A stretch of 64,000 nt of DNA from Thermoanaerobaculia bacterium (GCA_963816185.1 CAWFJJ010000030.1:256001-320000), one strand, 5' to 3'; counted from the stretch's first letter, positions 6,141 to 31,628 are shown. The notes: generated from the sequence alone by a model not told the origin. Made by a program: numbers and translations.

Positions 6141-9100
6141 TTCTGTGGTCCGTCACAGCAGAGCTCGTTCAGGTATCCGATCACACCGCCGGAGACACCT
6201 CCAGCGACCGGTGCCCCAAAGATCAGACGTCTAATGAAGGCCTCGGCCCAGAGAGTGCCGGGCTTTCCATTCATGTAGCTGTTGAGCGCCTTTGGGATTG
6301 CTATTAGTCTCCAGGCTTCGTTGCTTCCCCCAAACCTCTGGGCAGTAAGCCAGTGGTGAAGATCCCACTTGATGCCGAGGTGTTCGGCGCCCCCCAGCGT
6401 CTTCCAGAAGCGGGCACTAACGGTGGAGAATTTGCGGGTCTCATTCAAGAGCCTCGGGCCTGCCAATGCATTACCAGCTCCACGCAACGGAAGGGGCGCA
6501 GCGATGCTCAGCCCCTTGAGTAGAGAGAGCGCTCCTTTAACAACGCCACACAAAGTGTCCCCACTACCAAAGTGCTCACCTGACTGTTGGGCTTCAGCCA
6601 TTCCGGCGGTTCTGAGCAACGCGGCGGCTATTGACGCACCTGCTGCGGCGAGCGGGTCAGTCGACGTTTTGGCAACGTCGTCGTAGAAGGCTAGTGTGGC
6701 GCGTATATCCCAATAGTCGCCAAACTCCGCTCCTAATGGGTCTACCCAGTGAGAAGGCGCACGTCCAGCATAGGAGTAGAAACTACTGTCAACTGCGGGG
6801 CCGAATGGATCCTCCGCAGTGAATCTCCCGGCTCCCGCCTGGTAATACCTAGCCCTGTAGAACCACAGTCCCGCTTCAGCGAACTCGCGTCCCGTGTATC
6901 CGAACGCACTGAAGCGCGTGCCGGTCTCGGTCCGTGTCACGCCCCAGACGTCAAAGATCGAGTGGTGAGTGAGGGTGCCGGCTGGACTGTTTTCGCCTAC
7001 GTCCGTTCCGAGTCCATCGACGTCGATATACGAAAGCGTTCCTGCGCGGTAGAGCGCGAGCGGCTCGTCGATTGAGGGCCCGAAGGCGTAGTCGGTGTTT
7101 GTGCCTGACGTTGTTTCTCTGATGAGATTTAGGCCGTCGTAGAGATAGGTAGTCGTGACCCCGCCAACAGTCTTCGAGATACGTCTCCCCTGGTAGTCGT
7201 AGGTGTAGGCGGCGCCTGTCGCACCCGTGATCGATCGCAGGCGATTATCGAAGTCGGACGAGAACACGTAGTTCCCACTCGGCCCGCTGCGTGCGGTCTG
7301 GTTTCCGTTCAGGTCGAACGCGTAGGCGTTCGCGCCATCGTTCTGAGAGCTCTTGCCCGTCGAGCGGGTTCGCCCCGTTCTTGAAGTACGTATAGCTCTG
7401 GATGGCGGCGTTCACTTGGTTCGTCAGCCTATTCCCGATGGCGTCGTAGGTCCACTGATCTACCTCGCCGTTGAAGGGCGGCGCGGCCGGATACTGAGCC
7501 TTCACGAGCTGGTAGAGCGGATCATACGAGTACTTCGTCTGTGCGTTCGTGAAGCCCTGGTTCGGGACGTTGGCGGTCATCGAGACCCTCTGCCCGAGCA
7601 TAGTGTTCAGCCCCGTCACCCAGTCGACATCGTAGCCGTAGGCGTACGTGGCGAGGTTCTTGGCGCCGAGGGCGTTCGCGATCTGGGTGAGCCGCCCCTG
7701 GTCGTCGTAGACGTACGTCCGCGTCTGCCCGTTCGGGAACGTCACCGTCTGGTACTGCCCCCGCGGGGTGTAAGCGTACTTGAAGAGCCCCGCCTGCGGG
7801 CTCCAGGAGATCGTGTTGAGCGAGCCGTCGGAATAATAGGTGTGCGCCGTCGTGACGTTGGGGGTGCCGGCGATAGTCATCGTGTCAACCCGGTCGTCGG
7901 GGGTGTACGTATAGCTCAGCGTTCCGCGCGGACCTTGGACGTTCTGGGCGACGCGGTAGCTCGTGTCGTACCCGAACGTGTGGGTCTCGCTCGGGGTGAG
8001 GGTGGTGTCGACGACCTGCGTCAGCTTCTGGCCCTGATACGTGTACGTGATGGTCCCGTTGGAGCCGTAGTCCTTCTTCTTGAGGCGCTTGAAGCCGTCG
8101 TACGTGTACGCGATCGTCTGCCCCCTGCGGTCAGTCTTCGACGCCAGGAGGCCGCCTCCCCCGTAGGCATAGCTCTCGATCGAGCCATCGGGGAACGTCG
8201 TCTTATCGAGCCGCTTGAGCGGATCGTAGTGGTAGCTCGTGACGTTGCCGTTGGCGTCGGTGATGGAGGTTAGGACGTCGTTCATGTAGGCGTAGGTCGT
8301 GACGTTGTTCAGGGCGTCGATCGACTTCAGGAGCCGCCCGTGCTGGTCATAGCCGAGTTTCGTGAGTCTTCCGTTGGGATCCGTGATGTTCGTGAAGACG
8401 AGGCCCGAAGCGCTGTCGTAATTGTCGTAGGTGTAAGTGGTCGTGAAGCTGCCCGGGAAGCTCGGCGTGGGTTTCGGCAGGGTGACTGTGAGCACGCGGC
8501 CGAGGGCGTCGTAAGTGTATGTCGTGTCCTTGGCCGCGGGATCCGTGATCGTCCGCGAACGCCCGACGCCGTCGTAGTTCGAGTACTGCGTGATGGGGCG
8601 GATGCCGGAGTCGGCGTTCGTAGGTTGGGTCACAGTGGTGAGGTTCGCACCCGTATAGGCGTAGTTCGTCACCGCGCCTGTCGATGAAGTTTGCTGCGTG
8701 ACACGGCCCTGCGCGTCGTATTGGAACGTGGAAATGGTACTCGTCGTCGCGCCGTCGCTCTGGAGGCGCTTAACGTGGTTCAGGGTGCCCGACGCGAGGT
8801 AGTCGTAGCGCCAGCCTTGCCAGTTAGGTTCGAAGACCCCGGAGACAGGATTCTTCGGCGTGACCGAGGTGACCTTGTCGGGGAAGGCAGGGTCGTACGT
8901 GTAGTCGAAGCGCACGGGGGACCCGAGCACGTCGCGCGTCACGCTCGTGACGCGGCCGGCCGGGTCGTACGTGAAGTCGGTCCTCACGCCAACCTCGTCG
9001 ATGATCCTCGTGACGTTTCCGTCGCTGTCGTAGTCCTTGTGGGTCGTCCCCGAGCCGCCTGTCGCAGGGGGGGTGCTGTCTACAAGCAGGCCGGCGCCGC

Positions 9101-12100
9101 GAAAGCCACGGTCGTACTGTTGCCCAGAGAATCGGTCTTTCTCGTATGGGTCGTGTCGATGTAGGTATAGGAATAGGTCTCGAAGTTCTCGGTATAGGTC
9201 TTTGCCCTGTCGGCCACGTCGTAGGTCATAACTGTCAGCACGCGGTTCCAGTGGTCGGCGATCTGAGTCAGGAGCGGCCCGAAGCTGCCTTGCGCGTAGC
9301 CGTAGCGCGTTGCCAAGCCGGCGGGGTTGGTGACGGACGTCAGAGTCCCGTCGGCGGCGTAGGCGTACTGGACGCTTCTGCCGGCCGAGTCCTGGAGGCG
9401 ATCGATCTTGCCGTCGCCGCGGTAAGACACGGTGATGAAGCGGCCGGACCCCGAGGCATCGGCGACCTGAGTCGGCCTCCCGCTTGCGTCGTAGCCGATC
9501 GTGACCGTGTTGCCGTACTCGTCCCTCATGGAAACGAGGCGGCCCTTGTCGTCGAAGTGGTAGACGATTCGGCTCCTCTCGAGAGTCAGGTCGAAAGTCT
9601 TGTCCACGTTCCTGACGAGCGTGTCCTTTCGGCCCTGAGGCGGCGTGAACGGCCCGCTCGCATTGCCGAACGTGAAGCGGAAAACGACGCCGGTGGGCAT
9701 CTGAATGTCGAGCGCCTGGCCCGCCGAGGTGGCGACATACGCGAGATGCGCTTGAAGGCTCGAGCTCCAGCCGATCCCGTTGAGGTCGCTCTGGCGCTTG
9801 GAGCTGAAGTACTTGCGCGAGACCTGAAGGGGCAGGCCGGCTGTCGGAAGAACGAGATCGGTCGCCTCGCTTTGATAGGTGCCTGTGGCCGCGAAGACCG
9901 GTGAAGCCGTGCACGGACTCTCGATCGTCTCCCCATCCTGGCACGTACAGCACATGGCATTCGGATCTATCTTGTTCTCGACGACGAAGAAGGCCTCACC
10001 CCCCCAGTACTCGGCCTCGGGTTGATCCCCCTGTTTGTTCACGAGGCGAATGCGGTATCGCGGCGTATCTCCCGAAGATGGGTCCACTTGGAGGAAGTAA
10101 TAACCAAGCCTGGCCGGAGCCTTCAGCAGCTCGATGCCGAGATAGCCGCGGTTGTTCGAGCCCCCGGATGCATTCAGGGTGACCGGGTCGATGACTCCAT
10201 CGAGGCTGTCGAGCGGCGGAACCGCAAGCGTGTCGCACGGTCGGCCGGCCTGGCCGCTCGGTCCGGACTGCTGGGGAGGCCCTTCGTGATCGAAGCGCGG
10301 GCAGCGGTGGACGCGGAAGGCGCCCTCCGTGACGACTTGCCTTCCTCGTCGCGAAGACTCAGCCGGAATCTCGGCGCATCGCTCGTCTCCAGGCGCGGGT
10401 CCTGTGGATTCTTGAGCCTGTCGACGACGCATCGCGGCGCGCTGGGATTCTGTTTCCAGATCGTGTGCGGGTCCTCGAACGCTTCCACCTGAAGGGGCCA
10501 GCTTCCGATGACTGACTCCCCGTCATTCGGAGGAGAACAGGCGTTGGACGTCGCCGGCGGAAGTCTTGGGCATCGCAGATGTGGTGGCGCCGGGAGCCAC
10601 GCTGAACGGCGTGCCACGTCATCGACTCGGAGGCGCGCCTCGTAGCTCGCGAACGGCACGAGCGCGTGATAGGTCTCGCGATAGAATTGGAGGTACAGGT
10701 TCTTGGTGACGGTTCCTCCTGCCCAATCGGGGTCGTTCGGATAGTTCACGCTCAGAGTCGTCGTGTAGCGGCTCGCCGGCATAGAGGGGTCATCGTTCTA
10801 ATGGACGCATGTGGAATAGCCGGCGAAGTCGGTGGTGTCAGAGCTCTCGCCGAATATCGACAGCGTCTGGTCCTTGAATTCCACGAAGATGTTCGGTTGC
10901 GGTTGTGACGCCGAGGTGGACGTATAGCCATAAGTCACGTTGTCGTACCGGTCGTTGAGGAAGTAGGAGTTGAAGAGCTGAGTCCAGAGGCTCTCGAACG
11001 GAGGATTGCCGTTCAGCTTCGTGCCGCTCCGGAACTTCAGGAAATCGGACCAGTACGCCAGGAGGTTCGGGCAGGGAGAGCGCGACGCGTCGACGCAGGA
11101 GAAGTAGTCGGGCTTGCCAGTTCGACGCGGACGGGATAGAGGTACTCGTTCTGCAGGGAAAGTCCGGACGCGTCGAGGGTGTTGATTGCTAGATCGAGTA
11201 TCTCGCTCATTCCCCAGACGGGCTTGTAGGGAGGAGTCGTGACTTCGACGCCGAGGAAGTGAGAGTAGGTTCCGAGATTGAAGCCGATCTCCTCGTCGGC
11301 GCCGGGAGTTTCGTGCCAGAAGAGGGAAGCCGATTCGCATTCGATGCGGGCGCCTGCCGGGTCGAGAATGATCGTTCCGGGGGCGGCGCCTCCGGGAGCC
11401 AGACTGACGAGGACCGGATAATTGGGCGTCTGTCCGTAGGCGTCCTTGATGGCGATCCTGAGATGGATCTCCTTCCCCGTCCTGTGCCCGTGAATGCCGT
11501 CGATCTCGTCGACCACGCCGTTGGCCGTGCTTTGCCCGGTGGAGGGAGTCTCGTCGGTCAGGACGACCGTGAAGGGGGGATTGACCTGTAGTGCGCTGAC
11601 CGCGGCTTCGTCGAAGACCGTGGGGAAGCACCCGGTAATGACCTGGGTATGGATCGTAAGCGGCCGAGCGGGCGATCGAGCAGCATGGGGCGCGGAGCCT
11701 GCCGCACGTTCGAAGTCGAGGCCGACGAGCTTTGGTGCGCAGAGTCGCGCGCCGCGGGGATTTCAGCTCCTCCCCGGCGATCGACTTCCTCTCTGCCAGC
11801 TCGGGCGCTGGGAACCTCTCGAGGCGGCCGCCCGAGAGGGAAAGGTCGTGGCCTGAAATGCCGACGATGCTGATCGGGAGGCGGCCCGCGGGCCGATACC
11901 GCTGCACGGCCACCTTTGGCGACTCCTCGTCCTGGCGGGATGTGACGGCCGCAGCAGTCTCCTCTTGAAGGACGACACCCTGAGCGAGTGTCGAATCGAC
12001 GAGCACCGGCGAGAATCCGACCTTGCCGGGCGAAGTGAGCTTGGCGTAGACGAACGCGTAGCCGTCGACGCTCGTCGTCGTGGTGCTGCCGCCGACGAAC

Positions 12101-24786: not shown

Positions 24787-24824
24787 CTTCCGAGCCTACT
24801 CCAACCGTGGGCTACCATCGACGC

Positions 24825-26204: not shown

Positions 26205-26432
26205 TCAGCCCGTCTTCTTCTCGTCGGAGGGCTTCTTATCCATCCATTCCTGGCAGGCCTTGCAGATGAAGGCGTTCAGCCGGGGGACGAATCTCCATTC
26301 GTCGGACTTGTCCGCCTCGCAGAAGAAACACCGGCGCCGCTGGCGCGGCGCGACGGTCTCATCGAAGGGTTCGCGATCCTCCGGGGGCATCGTCGTTGCG
26401 GCTAGTTTGAGCCAACTCCTCGCGCGGCTCAA
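26205..26432 (-). CDS. small C4 zinc-finger protein (ClpX-ZBD-like)
   Basis: CFFC-x18-CKAC; TTG start after a GGAGG RBS. Confidence 0.6.
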   Translation of the reverse strand: MSRARSWLKLAATTMPPEDREPFDETVAPRQRRRCFFCEADKSDEWRFVPRLNAFICKACQEWMDKKPSDEKKTG

Positions 26433-26461
26433 GTCGACCCCTCCGTGGATCCTCGCGGAGC

Positions 26462-26884
26462 TCAGCGCGAATGCCCCGCCCTGTACCGATCAAGCCTTCG
26501 CCTGTCGATCTCGGACGCGATTCCACGCGTGACGAGGTCATCCAGGATTGCGGCAGCAGCCGGGATGTCGCCCGAGAAGGCGAGGTCACGCGAGTGCGTG
26601 CTTCGAGCCTTGCGATAGAGCTCCATCGGTGCGGGGGGAACGGAGAGACCGTGCTGCACCGTGTCGGGGTCGTGAAGCGCCTTCTCGTGGAGGACGAGGG
26701 CGGTCTCCGCGGCTTCCTCGAGTCGACGAACGTCGTAGAGCGCGGCGACGTAGAAACAGAAGACGGGGTAGTAGCGGTCCGCGTTCGCGAAGAGGGGTCC
26801 GAGCGCCTGAATGATTCGCTCGGAATCGGAGGGATGACACTCCGCGTACCTGGCATTCAGCTCTTCTTCGAACGCGTTCGTCAT
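26462..26884 (-). CDS. hypothetical helical (TPR-like) protein coupled to the retron RT
   Basis: ATG 8 nt after the RT stop, with the RBS (TAGGA) overlapping the RT stop codon; 140 aa; no recognised family. Confidence 0.7.
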   Translation of the reverse strand: MTNAFEEELNARYAECHPSDSERIIQALGPLFANADRYYPVFCFYVAALYDVRRLEEAAETALVLHEKALHDPDTVQHGLSVPPAPMELYRKARSTHSRDLAFSGDIPAAAAILDDLVTRGIASEIDRRRLDRYRAGHSR

Positions 26885-26892
26885 GGTTGGTC

Positions 26893-28563
26893 CTAGACTC
26901 CACCGCCACCGAGAAAAGCTTTGAGCGACGAGATTGGAATGGCGCAGTGGTCCTCGGTGTCTCGGGACGTGGCATCCGAATCCGCACCGGTGACGGCGAT
27001 GCCCACCACCTCGCCACCCGCATTCAATACCGCCCCCCCGCTCCCTCCGCGCACGACGGCTGCGTCGAGCCAGAGTCGACGTCTCGGCGATGACCGAAAC
27101 CCGGAGACACGGCCGCTGGTCACGCGAATCGGATCCCTCGGCCTGTGGTTTGGAAACCCAGCGACGAAGATTGCATCGTGGAACGTTGGCTCGACGTCGC
27201 TGACGGCTAGGGCCTGATCATCTGAAAGCACACAGCCCGCGACCTCGATCAGCGCCAGATCAAGCACTGGGTCGCGGCGCAAGATAGTGACCCGGTATGT
27301 CACCTCTGGCTGCTCCGGGCGATAGGCAATCGATTTAGCTCCGACGACATGGTCGCAGGTTACGATTCCAACTCCGCGAAGCGCGACAGCCGTACCTTGT
27401 CGAATGTCATCCCCGTCATCCTGCTCAAGCACCCACATCGCGGGGCCGAGCATGCGAGGAAGTTCTGTAGGAACGAATGGCTCGAGCGGAGCGGGTTCTG
27501 CCGGAAATGGGTACTTAAAAGATGGGACCAGGTCTGAGTATTGTGCAAGGAGACGACGGAAGCACCGGTTTTCCGCCCCGCGGACCATGCGGAGGTAATC
27601 CAGCTTCCCCTTCACGACGCGTTGATAAGACGGGCCCGACCGCTCTGGCGCACGGTGTCCTCGCGCATAGCGAGCGCGGTATTCCGACTCTGCGAGCTCA
27701 AGGCCGAAACGCCGCCACGCGTGCAACATCGCTCGGATCTGACGCACGAGGCGCCGATCGACATTGGGGAACTCGTTGACGGTGAGCCCTGTAACGCGTT
27801 GCCTCTCAGCGGCCCCCGAAAGCCGCACCTTGCCGGGGTTCACAAAGAAACCATTCGACGTAATCACGGCCTGTAAATCGGGCCCGATAGCGACACTAGC
27901 GTCTTCTTGCTTGCGGCATAGTCGGCCCGGGAACCTCGAGGCCGTGGTAGAGAATGTGATGTCGTCGGCGTAGCGGGTGTAGGTCGAGTGGCAGGACCGG
28001 GCGAGTCGCTGGAGCTGGCCGTCTAGACGAGCGCAGACCATGTTTGCCACGACCGGCGACGACGGTGCGCCCTGGGGCAGCTGATTTCCGTGACAGCAGA
28101 TCTGGGCCAATACGGTCGCAACCTCGGCGTTTCGCTCGTAAGGCTTTGCGCGGAACACGCCGCGAACCCTGCCGAAGTTGATGGTCGGGAAGAAGTCCTG
28201 AAGATCAACGTTAAGGACCTGGCACCGACCGACATGCGATGACGCATTCGTTACGATTCCCCGTCCTCGGACGAAACCGTGCACCGACGGCTTCAATTCC
28301 AAGACCGCTTGGAGCACCTGGTTAAGCTTTCGCTGTATCAACTTTAGAGCTGTTATTGGGGAACTGATAACCCTCTCGCCTCCCCGCCTCTTCGGGACGG
28401 AGTACGTCGTGTACCGCGCGTCCTCCGGTATCCGGTGGAGGTGATAGGTGAGAGCGCTGTAGGAAACGTCGAGGAGTGCAGCAACTTCCCGCGGCGTCGT
28501 AAGCGAGAAGAACGCCACGCGCAACTCTTCAGGGCTGCCCGAGAGATCACGTGAGCCGCGCAT
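26893..28563 (-). CDS. retron reverse transcriptase fused to a C-terminal trypsin-like serine protease (type XI-like retron)
   Basis: RT motifs: VPKRRGGERVISSP, HGF, NASSH (NAxxH), DLQDFFPTI, LPQGAPSSP, YTRYADDITFS, RVTGL (VTG). Protease triad: TCDHV, DLALI, GGSGGAV. Probable start is the ATG at 28563. Confidence 0.93.
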   Translation of the reverse strand: MRGSRDLSGSPEELRVAFFSLTTPREVAALLDVSYSALTYHLHRIPEDARYTTYSVPKRRGGERVISSPITALKLIQRKLNQVLQAVLELKPSVHGFVRGRGIVTNASSHVGRCQVLNVDLQDFFPTINFGRVRGVFRAKPYERNAEVATVLAQICCHGNQLPQGAPSSPVVANMVCARLDGQLQRLARSCHSTYTRYADDITFSTTASRFPGRLCRKQEDASVAIGPDLQAVITSNGFFVNPGKVRLSGAAERQRVTGLTVNEFPNVDRRLVRQIRAMLHAWRRFGLELAESEYRARYARGHRAPERSGPSYQRVVKGKLDYLRMVRGAENRCFRRLLAQYSDLVPSFKYPFPAEPAPLEPFVPTELPRMLGPAMWVLEQDDGDDIRQGTAVALRGVGIVTCDHVVGAKSIAYRPEQPEVTYRVTILRRDPVLDLALIEVAGCVLSDDQALAVSDVEPTFHDAIFVAGFPNHRPRDPIRVTSGRVSGFRSSPRRRLWLDAAVVRGGSGGAVLNAGGEVVGIAVTGADSDATSRDTEDHCAIPISSLKAFLGGGGV

Positions 28564-28567
28564 GGAT

Positions 28568-28712
28568 GAGGCGCCCGAAGCCAAGACTCTGCTTTCCGAT
28601 GCGCGCAAGCGCGCGATGCAACCGCAAACGCAGCAATGTTCCCGTATCCAGGGACCTTAGATAAACCGTCGCGGATCAACGACGAAAATCAATCGAGCTT
28701 CGGGCGCCTCCG
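28568..28712 (-). ncRNA. retron msr-msd RNA
   Basis: Perfect 14-bp inverted repeat GAGGCGCCCGAAGC (28568-28581) / GCTTCGGGCGCCTC (28697-28710) enclosing 115 nt. Inside: two short msr-like hairpins (CGUCGU/GCGACG and UCCC/GGGA) and an msd-like stem (CTGC-TTT..GCGCG-CAAG-CGCGC..AAA-C-GCAG). Ends 4 nt before the RT ATG. Confidence 0.85.
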
Positions 28713-28721
28713 TCGTGCCGG

Positions 28722-28750
28722 ATCGTAGTCGGCTGGATTTGATTTCGCAA
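28722..28750 (-). promoter_or_regulatory. sigma70-type promoter for the retron operon
   Basis: Minus strand TTGCGA-17 nt-TACGAT, 11 nt upstream of the 5' inverted-repeat arm. Confidence 0.7.
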
Positions 28751-28831
28751 ATAACGGCCCGCTCGAACCAGTGCGCCTCTTGCCGCCGGTCGACGTTCCT
28801 GAACGCGATTCAGGAGCTGTAGCGAGGCGCC

Positions 28832-29115
28832 TCAGTTCTCCTTGCCATGTTCCTTCTCCTTCTCCTTGGCCGGCGGGTTCGCCTTTGCAGCCGGCGGAGG
28901 GCCCTGCGGCTTGGGCTGCACGTGCTGCACGCGCTGCACGTTGGGCTGTCTCTCCACGTGGGCGGGAGGAGGTTGATGGGCGGAATTGAGTTGTGCCTGA
29001 GCGACGGGCTTTCTCGTGTCGCTCGTTCGACGGCGGAGGCGGCGGCTGATGAACGGTCGCCTTCTCGCGTTTCTCGTGCGAGCTTTTCGGGGGCGGCGAA
29101 TGGACCTCCCGCTGC
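28832..29115 (-). pseudogene. displaced, diverged copy of the 3' end of the DUF6600 gene
   Basis: Encodes ...HEKREKATVHQPPPPPSNERHEK/PVAQAQLNSAHQPPPAHVERQPNVQRVQHVQPKPQGPPPAAKANPPAKEKEKEHGKEN*; 9 mismatches in the terminal 89 nt versus 30362 onward. Confidence 0.9.
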
Positions 29116-29148
29116 GCCTGAAGCTGAAACCACTTTTCCCGGGCCGGG

Positions 29149-29946
29149 TCAGAGCGGCAGAATGGCTTTCCACCGAATGCCGCCGAAGCGCCACGGGCGA
29201 ACACGGAGGCTCGTGCCGTCATTGTACAGGAGCAGCGCAACGAGGTGCTCCGTCACGATATTCAAGTTTCCATCGACCGGAGCCCCCCACTTCATTTCCG
29301 GCAGTGGCGGAGCGTCATCCCCATCCATTCGGAGAGCTAGACCATCTCCACGACCAAAGATGTTTTTTATTGTACCGGTGAAAGTCGGGAACAGAATCGC
29401 CGTCTTCGACGTGATATGGGCCCTCCCGAATAATTCCACCTCCCACGGGAGCTTGACGAGCCCCCGGTCCTTCAGGCGATCGATATGACTGACGGCCATC
29501 TTGATCAGCGGCGCGAATAGTATTCCGTCCGGGACGTATGTTGGGGGGTCGACAGGATTGAACTTCGCCGGCCTTTCGTCGAGCAAATTGCGGCGCAGGA
29601 TATCGAGAGGGGTTTCGGCGTGGAGCGGGGTCGAGTCGGTCGCTGGCACACTTGCCGTGCGCCCGGCCAGTTCTTCCATGCGCCTCAGCATCGGCCCGCC
29701 GGGATCGACGAACCCGCTTCGCTGCCCGGGGAAGTGCTTGTCCTCGAAATGCGAGATGGCGCGATAGAGGGCATCGCTCGACAGGCCCGAAACGATGGGG
29801 CCGGTGAGGCTTCCCCCCGAGCCGCCCTCACTGGGGGGAATGCGGTTGAGCAGCGCGATCACCGCCTGCTGGTCTTCTGACCAGTTTTGGCACTGGCGCG
29901 CTCCGGCCCGGGTGTGTCGGCCAACACGTCCTCTAAGTGACATCAT
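29149..29946 (-). CDS. hypothetical protein with N-terminal peptidoglycan-binding-like domain
   Basis: GGGAGGA RBS; VG..N..DQQAVIALLNRI..GG..L..G......AISHFE....SGFVDPGG..L resembles the PG-binding-like pattern; C-terminal half unknown. Confidence 0.6.
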   Translation of the reverse strand: MMSLRGRVGRHTRAGARQCQNWSEDQQAVIALLNRIPPSEGGSGGSLTGPIVSGLSSDALYRAISHFEDKHFPGQRSGFVDPGGPMLRRMEELAGRTASVPATDSTPLHAETPLDILRRNLLDERPAKFNPVDPPTYVPDGILFAPLIKMAVSHIDRLKDRGLVKLPWEVELFGRAHITSKTAILFPTFTGTIKNIFGRGDGLALRMDGDDAPPLPEMKWGAPVDGNLNIVTEHLVALLLYNDGTSLRVRPWRFGGIRWKAILPL

Positions 29947-29977
29947 GTCCTCCCTTCGGCCCTCTATTCACATTATT

Positions 29978-30028
29978 AGCCAGGAATTCGCGTTGAGCGG
30001 ACGACACGAATTCGAGGCGGTAAGCTAC
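29978..30028 (-). pseudogene. RelE/ParE-type toxin N-terminal remnant
   Basis: (V)AYRLEFVSSAQREFLA directly after the antitoxin stop; truncated and lacking a start codon. Confidence 0.5.
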
Positions 30029-30032
30029 GCCG

Positions 30033-30277
30033 TTACATACCGCCACGCTTACGAACCTCGGCCCAGGATCCTCTTGGGGTTGGCGAGCCGGGAGACGGAC
30101 ACGCTCACGTCGTAGCGATCCTCCAGCTCCTCAAGGAGCTTCAGGTCCGCGATCGAGACGACCGCGGCGACGGGCTTCTTCCCCCGGCGCGTGATCACGC
30201 GCTCGCCGTGGCGCGTGCCATCGAGAACGGGATTCGCTCACCGAGGCACGCGCTCTGGGGGCCACGGCGCGGCTCAT
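30033..30277 (-). pseudogene. Phd/YefM antitoxin, degraded
   Basis: MSRAV..SVSESR../RHGERVITRRGKKPVAAVVSIADLKLLEELEDRYD..KRI/WAEVRKRGGM*, with two frame breaks. Confidence 0.7.
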
Positions 30278-30361
30278 GACAACTCGCATTCTACGGCCCT
30301 TTCACCGTTCAGTCGGCCGCTTGCCCCTGCCAGAACCGCGCGTCGTGCGCCGGCCAATCCT

Positions 30362-31579
30362 TCAGTTCTCCTTGCCGTGCTCCTTCTCTTTCTCCTTGCC
30401 CGGCGGATTCCCCTTGGCAGCGGGCGGAGGACCCTGCGGCTTGGGCTGCACGCGCTGCACGTTGGGCTGTCTCTCCACGTGGGCGGGAGGGGGTTGGTGG
30501 ACGGAGTTGAGCTGTGCCTGAGCGACGGGCTTCTCGTGTCGCTCGTGCGACGGCGGAGGCGGTGGTTGATGGGCCGTTGCCGCCTGCTCGTGCTTGACGT
30601 TCTTCTCATGAGAAGGCTGGGATGGTGGTTGATGGACCGTGGCCGCCCGCTCGTGCTTGATGTTCTTCTCATTCGAAGGCGGAGGCGGCTGCTGATGGAC
30701 CGTCGCCTTCTCGTGCCGCTCGTGCGAAACCGGGGGCGGCTGGAACGCCCGCTCGGACTTGGAGGGCATCGTGCGCGAAGCCTGCGACGGAGCGCGCTTC
30801 TCGTGCTCCGAGATCAGTTTCGCCCGCTCGCCTGCGGGGACGACGACCGAGGCTCGTTTCCCCTGTAGGGACGTGCGGATCGGGACCGCCTGCGTTTTCG
30901 CGTGGGCGAGGCTCACGCGCTGAATCCGCTTCCCGGCGACGCGTTCGACCTGCGAGATCGGCGGGCCGCCGGCGGACAGGGCGCCGCCCTGGACCGCGAA
31001 CCGCGTGACGGGTCGCGAGCGCGCGATGAACGTCGCGTTCTGGGTGACCGGAACGCGCACCGAGCTCACGTTGACGCCCGCGAACTGCCGGGCCGGCACG
31101 AATACATACGCGCTGCGCGACACGGTCACCGCCGGGCCGACGTAACCCGAGATCCCGACGGCGAAGCTCGGCGGGACGGGCGCCCATCCGAAAGCGTCGT
31201 CCGTGATGTACCACGTCACCCAGGCGGGGGCCCAGACGGTCCCTGGAATCCAGATCCATCCGTCGTCGGCGGTGTCGACCCACGTTCCGTAGTGATACGG
31301 GTCGCCGCCCCACGGGTCGAACGAGACCCAGGTCCAGCCGTCCTCCGTGTAGACCCACTCACCGTCGAGATAAGGCTGCCAGCCCACGGCGACGTGCCGG
31401 GGGTGCCAGCAGCGGCCGTAGCTTCCGACCGTGACCCAGTCGCCGTAAGGCGCGAGCGAGTCGTAGAAGAACCCGACGCTGACGGAAACGGACGCGCGCG
31501 CGGGCTGCGCCGGCACGGCGACGCCGACGGCGACAGCCAGAGCGAGTACGAGGAAAACGACGCGATTTTTCAATCGCAT
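30362..31579 (-). CDS. DUF6600 domain secreted protein with Pro/His/Gln-rich tail
   Basis: Signal peptide; FYDSLAPYGDW, WQPYLDGEWVYTEDGWTWVS.DPWG..PYHYGTW, WAPAWV, GWAP.PP. Confidence 0.85.
   Translation of the reverse strand: MRLKNRVVFLVLALAVAVGVAVPAQPARASVSVSVGFFYDSLAPYGDWVTVGSYGRCWHPRHVAVGWQPYLDGEWVYTEDGWTWVSFDPWGGDPYHYGTWVDTADDGWIWIPGTVWAPAWVTWYITDDAFGWAPVPPSFAVGISGYVGPAVTVSRSAYVFVPARQFAGVNVSSVRVPVTQNATFIARSRPVTRFAVQGGALSAGGPPISQVERVAGKRIQRVSLAHAKTQAVPIRTSLQGKRASVVVPAGERAKLISEHEKRAPSQASRTMPSKSERAFQPPPVSHERHEKATVHQQPPPPSNEKNIKHERAATVHQPPSQPSHEKNVKHEQAATAHQPPPPPSHERHEKPVAQAQLNSVHQPPPAHVERQPNVQRVQPKPQGPPPAAKGNPPGKEKEKEHGKEN
30530..30730 (-). repeat. ~63-nt tandem coding repeats (HExAATxHQPPxxPSxEK)
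   Basis: TCGTGCTTGAyGTTCTTCTCAT recurs at ~30588 and ~30651; about three units. Confidence 0.75.
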
Positions 31580-31628
31580 GTTCTTCACCTCCTTCGGGCT
31601 CTTTTGTTACAAGTCGCGTGCCAGAAAC

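Follow-up and report, generated by a model that had tools for sequence, protein, structure and literature searches.

A TPR-like gene coupled to a type XI retron reverse transcriptase-protease in a Thermoanaerobaculia bacterium, a possible lineage-specific accessory

The type XI retrons are defined by Mestre et al (2020; PMC7736814), in the part of the article that deals with this type, as a fusion of a reverse transcriptase (RT) and a trypsin-like protease that lacks an associated gene cluster, and “cleavage of targeting peptides” was proposed there for the protease. The account of canonical type XI in Toro (2026; PMC13712802) likewise gives a single open reading frame (ORF), and the word TPR, for tetratricopeptide repeat, does not occur in that article. 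Accessory proteins made of HEAT/ARM-like alpha-helical repeats are encoded beside the RT of type XIII retrons, for which a role as interaction scaffolds was proposed (PMC7736814, type XIII passages), and small partners encoded next to proteases are described as common in defence in the sections on such modules of a recent preprint (bioRxiv 10.1101/2025.11.14.688446). A TPR accessory of type XI was not found among the titles and abstract beginnings of the literature on type XI, trypsin-like and tetratricopeptide retrons, and the literature search on type XI retrons returned no experimental study. Here we describe a type XI retron in a stretch of 64,000 nucleotides from a Thermoanaerobaculia bacterium (GCA_963816185.1 CAWFJJ010000030.1:256001–320000; the whole stretch is called the window), in which the RT-protease gene is closely followed by a second ORF, named ORF140, that was acquired together with the retron. 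ORF140 is tentatively read as a lineage-specific accessory of this retron, a TPR-like subunit that would modulate or direct the protease, and not as a universal third component of type XI.

ORF140 is located on the minus strand at 26462–26884 (140 aa, ATG start), downstream of the RT-protease gene and on the same strand. At the junction (26885–26895, minus strand), the TAG stop of the RT-protease (26895–26893) is followed by a spacer of 8 nt (26892–26885) and by the ATG of ORF140 (26884–26882). Since the minus strand reads GGAGTC-TAG-GACCAACC-ATG, the possible ribosome-binding site TAGGA (26895–26891) overlaps the stop of the RT-protease and ends 6 nt ahead of the ORF140 start. The same spacing and the same ribosome-binding site over the stop codon had been noted in the first-pass annotation of this DNA, and our reading of the sequence agrees with both. 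We infer that the two genes are probably co-transcribed as a two-gene operon. The sequencing runs that matched the window were four DNA runs of one study with short contigs, in which 23 of 39 pieces were at least 99% like the window; neither an RNA run nor joints in the contigs were found among them.

The region is rich in overlapping spurious ORFs, among them a mirror ORF of 141 aa on the plus strand (26471–26896), and a chance open frame in GC-rich DNA was therefore considered for ORF140. A word-indexed search gave six close relatives with 71–78% identity at 36–100% coverage, and an exhaustive HMMER search of 1.84 billion sequences gave 22 representatives at E ≤ 1e-3, of which three reached ≤1e-10 and one ≤1e-30. 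When ORF140 was compared with a homologous fragment from a genome of the same genus (G013), the dN/dS was found to be 0.10 over 66 codons (dN 0.13, dS 1.26), and the gene is thus under purifying selection. Because the homologues conserve the motif pattern, the dN/dS is this low and the structural model reaches a mean pLDDT of 94.9, ORF140 is a genuine and previously unnamed gene, and its being a chance frame is highly improbable.

The candidate noncoding RNA (ncRNA) of the retron, the RT-protease gene and ORF140, and nothing else, make up a segment of 2.4 kb at 26439–28831, which is one insertion because contig C3 of a same-genus genome (G007) has the empty site. On this contig, only 73 nt separate a small zinc-ribbon gene from a DUF6600 3′ end, and the homology of the contig to the window picks up again at 28834. 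The left flank at 24800–26434/26439, which comprises a membrane protein gene, a PilZ gene and the zinc-ribbon gene, is 89–90% conserved in two further genomes (G003 and G011), and the stop codon of ORF140 is ~23 nt from the left edge of the insertion. The GC content of the insertion is 0.617 against 0.664 for the window. The GC content at third codon positions was 0.77 for ORF140, 0.68 for the RT and 0.72 for a neighbouring ORF (ORF265, described below) against 0.84–0.90 in six core genes, so ORF140 and the RT have a foreign composition in common. ORF140 and the retron entered the genome together as one horizontally acquired cassette. Among 61 relatives, G000 alone had a full-length RT-Protease_XI, and none of the 28 other members of the genus gave a match; no same-genus genome had ORF140 or the RT-protease at this locus, and the empty-site and flank loci from relatives had no ORF matching the family alignment of ORF140 (A1). 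The tight coupling to the RT-protease claimed by the first-pass annotation is thus borne out by the 8-nt gap and the co-insertion. A retron-less relative carrying the gene at this locus, which that annotation had named as evidence against a link, was not seen in any of the loci fetched, and this result therefore favours linkage.

The RT-protease gene is present on the minus strand at 26893–28563 when read from its ATG (556 aa), or up to 28608 when read from a TTG (571 aa), and was assigned by PADLOC, Pfam and an alignment of 16 RT-proteases (A5). PADLOC RT-Protease_XI matched residues 33–565 of the 571-aa reading with 3.6e-162, and the Pfam matches were RVT_1 (1.2e-18) and, at residues 405–537 of the same reading, Trypsin_2 (1.2e-17). 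A retron RT is recognised as an RT of the retron clade with a YADD catalytic box and the motifs NAxxH and VTG, all of which the window protein has, and its YADD, NA..H and VTG fall in invariant columns of the alignment. The protease residues H405 and S508, invariant in the alignment, and D435, nearly invariant, are also kept. Judged by its sequence, this gene is an intact and full member of the type XI retron RT-proteases. Next to it, a candidate msr/msd ncRNA (28568–28710, minus strand) is marked by a perfect 14-nt inverted repeat (28568–28581 and 28697–28710), whose arms are 115 nt apart and whose 3′ arm ends 5 nt ahead of the RT ATG, where the a1/a2 stem is expected. The predicted fold of the candidate includes a long-range stem with an overall z-score of just −1.26, and Rfam gave no match over it. 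With this candidate ncRNA and the RT-trypsin protease, the retron appears to be complete. It is like canonical type XI in the RT-Protease_XI profile, the RT motifs, the catalytic triad and an upstream inverted repeat located where a1/a2 would be expected. Canonical type XI is a single ORF in the accounts of the type cited above, and 27 other loci examined here fit this description, whereas the retron of the window has a second coupled ORF within the same insertion.

Perfect inverted repeats in the same position were also seen at other canonical type XI loci (L025, L035, L036, L038, L044, L047, L051 and L053), the first arm beginning ~100–180 nt ahead of the RT start, whereas the other ends between ~37 nt before and 24 nt after it. 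Arms of at least 11 nt were found at 9 of 26 type XI loci and in 1 of 78 control windows inside RT genes, and arms of at least 9 nt at 18 of the 26 loci and in 8 of the 78 control windows. The type XI sections of both reports (PMC7736814; PMC13712802) describe no recognisable ncRNA for the canonical type, and by position these repeats have the look of an a1/a2 stem from an msr/msd ncRNA. As a by-product, the present work yields positional evidence that canonical type XI RTs are preceded by a1/a2 repeats.

The ORF140 protein had no Pfam family at E ≤ 1 and no match in PADLOC or NCBIfam. An AlphaFold2 model made with the 25-row alignment A1 has eight helices, with the mean pLDDT given above and a pTM of 0.88, and the lowest confidence is seen in a loop at residues ~71–84 (block mean 81) ahead of a family-wide PPAPM motif. 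TPR_2 or TPR_14 was matched by 9 of the 25 members of A1 (best TPR_2 E 2.2e-7) and TPR-S by 3. Foldseek gave no hit for the model at E ≤ 1e-3 (E ≥ 0.058), its top rows being TPR or pentatricopeptide repeat proteins, and the ESM Atlas gave only generic TPR-like clusters. A sweep of the full PDB returned BamD, a type III secretion system (T3SS) chaperone complex and the TPR domains of Sgt2, Sti1 and PP5 with Z of 9.3–10.3 over 103–128 residues, at 6–15% sequence identity and below the Z of ~13 where helical repeats cease matching by arrangement alone. The best structural matches of ORF140 are therefore the three-repeat peptide-binding TPR domains (Sti1/Hop, Sgt2, PP5), the T3SS class II chaperones and BamD, and because of these Z and Foldseek values the protein is called TPR-like as a fold class only, with no membership in any of these families. 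No membrane-spanning segment was noticed when the sequence was read by eye, without a predictor. On the model, ORF140 would be a small soluble TPR-like protein of about three helical repeats and a capping helix. The first-pass annotation had likewise called the protein helical and TPR-like with no recognisable family, and the family scans, the relatives and the fold all support that description.

Among the 22 representatives, 17 are longer (206–265 aa), and their C-terminal ~115 residues align with residues 20–136 of ORF140; the model of one such long form (P0016) is an 11-helix solenoid with a pLDDT of 90.1. The nearly invariant positions of the family are Y38, P40, C43, P86, G105, A110 and D127, and its consensus reads ...YEPxLCxYAEALYK...PPAPM...AAKAxRA.... 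The short form, to which ORF140 belongs, has 138–148 aa with an N-terminal helix of its own and is intact in three clusters (P0002–P0004). This unnamed family is rare and scattered. The A1 profile gave one real match in a sample of 401 genomes from across the phylum (G000, 2e-48), the four others being weak (E 7.6e-5 to 4.9e-4) and inside ORFs of 392–1670 aa, and the short-form profile A2 gave G000 and the G013 fragment only in 63 genomes of the taxonomic family. For P0016, another 29 relatives were obtained at the level of 90% clusters. No member was found in viral contigs searched with A6 and A2, among plasmids queried by tblastn with P0016 and P0001, or among phages queried in the same way with P0001. 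The A3 profile likewise gave none in 301 genomes from the phylum to which G455, the genome with the cyanobacterial locus L022, belongs, and none in the three genomes containing L021–L023. The search of metagenome contigs with A2 returned 564 pattern matches, which were rejected as none of them was a relative.

The precedents for an accessory role are the repeat-protein accessories of type XIII and the small protease-adjacent partners of defence systems. Like ORF140, the former consist of alpha-helical repeats and have their genes next to that of a retron RT, the likeness being one of description. They differ in belonging to another retron type with another effector, and in recurring across their type, which ORF140 does not do in type XI. 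A functional link between ORF140 and the protease is plausible. In the mechanism proposed, ORF140 would be translated in step with the RT-protease, and its TPR groove may bind a peptide segment, which could come from the protease domain, from the substrate of the protease or from a phage protein; in this way ORF140 would tune or direct the protease. Co-folding of the full RT-protease (A5) with ORF140 (A1) gave a score of 0.00, that is “no answer”, which counts neither way.

Several observations weigh against an accessory role, and the first is that the pairing did not recur at other type XI loci. From the 580 relatives that a metagenome scan with the RT-protease alignment gave, the 80 best were retained, and 27 loci outside the window with the protease complete to its end, 26 metagenomic and one from G219, formed the comparison set. 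An ORF of the A1 family was present at 0 of these 27 loci in the flanks fetched (up to 4 kb each side), and no other downstream gene recurred across them; at least 430 nt of downstream DNA was available in 22 of the 27. PDLC02960 matched 11 of the 401 genomes of the phylum at E ≤ 1e-60, with the protease part only in G000 and G219, and G219, with the one further full-length type XI of this set, has a transposase fragment downstream. Because other type XI retrons are without it, ORF140 looks like a local add-on. The first-pass claim of a dedicated partner and a new three-part type XI architecture is therefore not upheld, there being neither a family member nor a recurrent ORF at the 27 loci, and the check suggested with it, a search for homologues of ORF140 beside RT-trypsin genes, found none there.

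A closely following ORF of at least 100 aa was seen at only 3 of the 27 loci, a different gene in each case and within 60 nt of the RT-protease stop, namely a restriction-enzyme-like protein at an offset of −1 (L036, 1923–2621), an HEC-01B ATPase (L038, 5581–6768; 7e-229) and an unassigned protein of 218 aa (L056, 2232–2888). These look like neighbouring defence genes and not like a recurring partner. On genome contigs the window RT gave three loci, an RT with a C-terminal region that reads as Toprim-like, a stand-alone RT and a 34% relative, none of them with an ORF140 family member. In a cyanobacterial metagenome-assembled genome (MAG), a stand-alone RT without protease (L022, 3563–4537), 54% identical to the RT part of the window protein, is preceded at a distance of 440 nt, and in the same orientation, by the gene of a conventional TPR protein of 324 aa, a protein that falls outside the ORF140 family by the A1 profile.

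The absence of the family at all 27 other loci, together with the description of type XI as a single-ORF system (PMC13712802, in its account of canonical type XI), is also what would be seen if ORF140 were a TPR-like gene in its own right, from a small and mobile family that decays fast, and shared the cassette and the transcript but had a function unrelated to the RT-protease. This explanation is nearly as likely as an accessory role, and the distribution of relatives speaks for it. The RT search, which covered proteins of 305–973 aa only, gave 3280 matches, and among the 120 listed the RT has one relative at 85% (P0036, whose contigs measure 2248 and 2174 nt), the next being at 51%. Close homologues of ORF140 outnumber these, with relatives at 78, 74, 73 and 71% on contigs of 28604, 3069, 7730 and 1107 nt, respectively, of which those at 78, 74 and 71% (28604, 3069 and 1107 nt) are intact, and none of the four contig sizes matches a contig of the 120 listed RT matches. 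As its size is absent there, the 28.6-kb contig is probably without a closely related RT-protease, and on the short contigs a truncated RT could have escaped notice, given the length range of the search. Furthermore, four of the seven clusters of close homologues are truncated (P0005 cut at the 5′ end, P0006 with the N-terminal half, P0007 with the first 50 residues and P0008 with the C-terminal 87), as expected of dispensable island cargo, and the long-form relatives (~230 aa) include a MAG named by NCBI as Ca. Methanogaster and a Microgenomates MAG. What an independent gene would leave unexplained is the 8-nt coupling and an insertion that contains nothing besides the retron and ORF140.

The fragment from the same-genus genome G013 was also weighed here. 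It lies at the end of contig C62 of an assembly that is 97% complete and in which RT-Protease_XI has no match. Beside the remnant, at 6861–10259 of the same contig (L126), a ThiF-JAB fusion of 488 aa, a DUF6527 protein and a Schlafen AlbA_2 protein are encoded, a setting that looks like a defence island. These surroundings and the missing RT-Protease_XI would fit an independent gene, but ~88 nt upstream of codon 4 of the fragment recur with 89–100% identity at two further contig ends of G013, and we conclude that a repeated element cut the 5′ end of the homologue at about codon 4. The fragment is therefore uninformative on its former upstream neighbour, and it was dropped as an example of the ORF without an RT upstream. 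The 88-nt sequence, found at the end of C62, the end of C97 and the start of C33 (L133–L135), is presumably the terminus of a mobile element present in several copies, at which the assembly is broken.

One observation on the long form also goes against an independent gene. For the long form P0016 and for an RT-protease (P0084) alike, the longest contig measures 7138 nt, and both contigs come from one source. This was one match in a comparison of ~46 long-form contig sizes with 120 RT contig sizes, and it is taken as a lead only because a chance match was estimated at roughly 0.2. In a tree of 121 RT sequences, P0084 was not near the window RT, the smallest clade common to both having 74 leaves. 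The type XI RT-proteases may have recruited the TPR-like family more than once, as the short form in the window and as the long form P0016 with P0084, to serve as a sensor or adaptor gating the protease, but we regard this as doubtful.

The position of ORF140 next to an intact protease also raised the possibility that it is a substrate or effector, that is, a latent toxin or decoy cleaved by the fused trypsin-like protease in the manner of Pepco, EACC1 and the pro-nucleases. Pairs of protease and substrate are widespread in the relevant sections of two reports (bioRxiv 10.1101/2025.11.14.688446; PMC12799240), and the modules with Pepco/Trypco, EACC1, MBL and pro-nucleases resemble the present arrangement, a small protein of no known family beside a trypsin-like protease fused to a defence sensor. 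The least confident loop of the model, ahead of the PPAPM motif, could be taken as a point in favour. The effectors of those modules are, however, beta-barrel or beta-sheet pore formers or enzymes, Pepco and EACC1 being beta-rich pore formers in the part of the preprint describing them (bioRxiv 10.1101/2025.11.14.688446), whereas ORF140 is predicted to be a soluble, compact, all-helical repeat domain, and its model has no extended part of low confidence. Thus, ORF140 shares with Pepco and EACC1 the place beside a possible activating protease, 8 nt downstream of it, and is set apart from them by its all-helical fold and by the family scans, which also gave no enzymatic family in Pfam, PADLOC or NCBIfam. 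The Pfam set presumably includes models for the Pepco and EACC1 families. The lack of a visible membrane-spanning segment points the same way. Moreover, partner-less type XI retrons are the rule, and the protease must therefore have other targets. A role as protease substrate or effector is thus improbable, and the cleavage-activated toxin offered as one option in the first-pass annotation is unlikely for a compact all-helical protein without a Pfam match at E ≤ 1. ORF140 may instead serve as an adaptor, an inhibitor or a sensor.

With respect to the flanks, the small zinc-ribbon gene on the left (26205–26432, minus strand; zf-C4_ClpX 8e-4, below the cut-off) belongs to the core genome and lies outside the cassette. 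It is 84–90% conserved in G003, G011 and G007, and the homology ends at ~26434–26439, just past its listed start. The right edge of the insertion is formed by a duplicated DUF6600 3′ fragment of 282 nt (28832–29113, minus strand), and the intact gene assigned to DUF6600 lies at 30362–31588 on the same strand. The 3′ end of DUF6600 is thus present twice in the window, 28832–29067 corresponding to 30362–30590 (85.8%) and 29022–29113 to 30668–30753 (78%). Between these two ends lies a second low-GC foreign segment (29114–30361) with ORF265 (265 aa; 29149–29946, minus strand), for which no match was found in Pfam, NCBIfam or PADLOC. The site beside the zinc-ribbon gene is variable, as it is occupied in G003 by genes for a TPR-transglutaminase and an OEP protein, and in G007 ~4 kb is inserted between the PilZ and zinc-ribbon genes.

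The cassette is a clean example of a minimal retron unit delimited by an empty site. On present evidence, the partnership of ORF140 with the RT-protease is confined to one lineage and a new architecture is not established; if the link between ORF140 and the protease is functional, the locus would be a variant form of the type XI retron. The role of the type XI protease is so far a hypothesis in the passage that proposes it (PMC7736814). If type XI RT-proteases did recruit the TPR-like family more than once as a sensor or adaptor, this retron would be a three-component variant of type XI through which the targets recognised by the protease could be approached. A partner that binds peptides and is inherited together with the retron would offer a way in to the substrate or the regulator of that protease.

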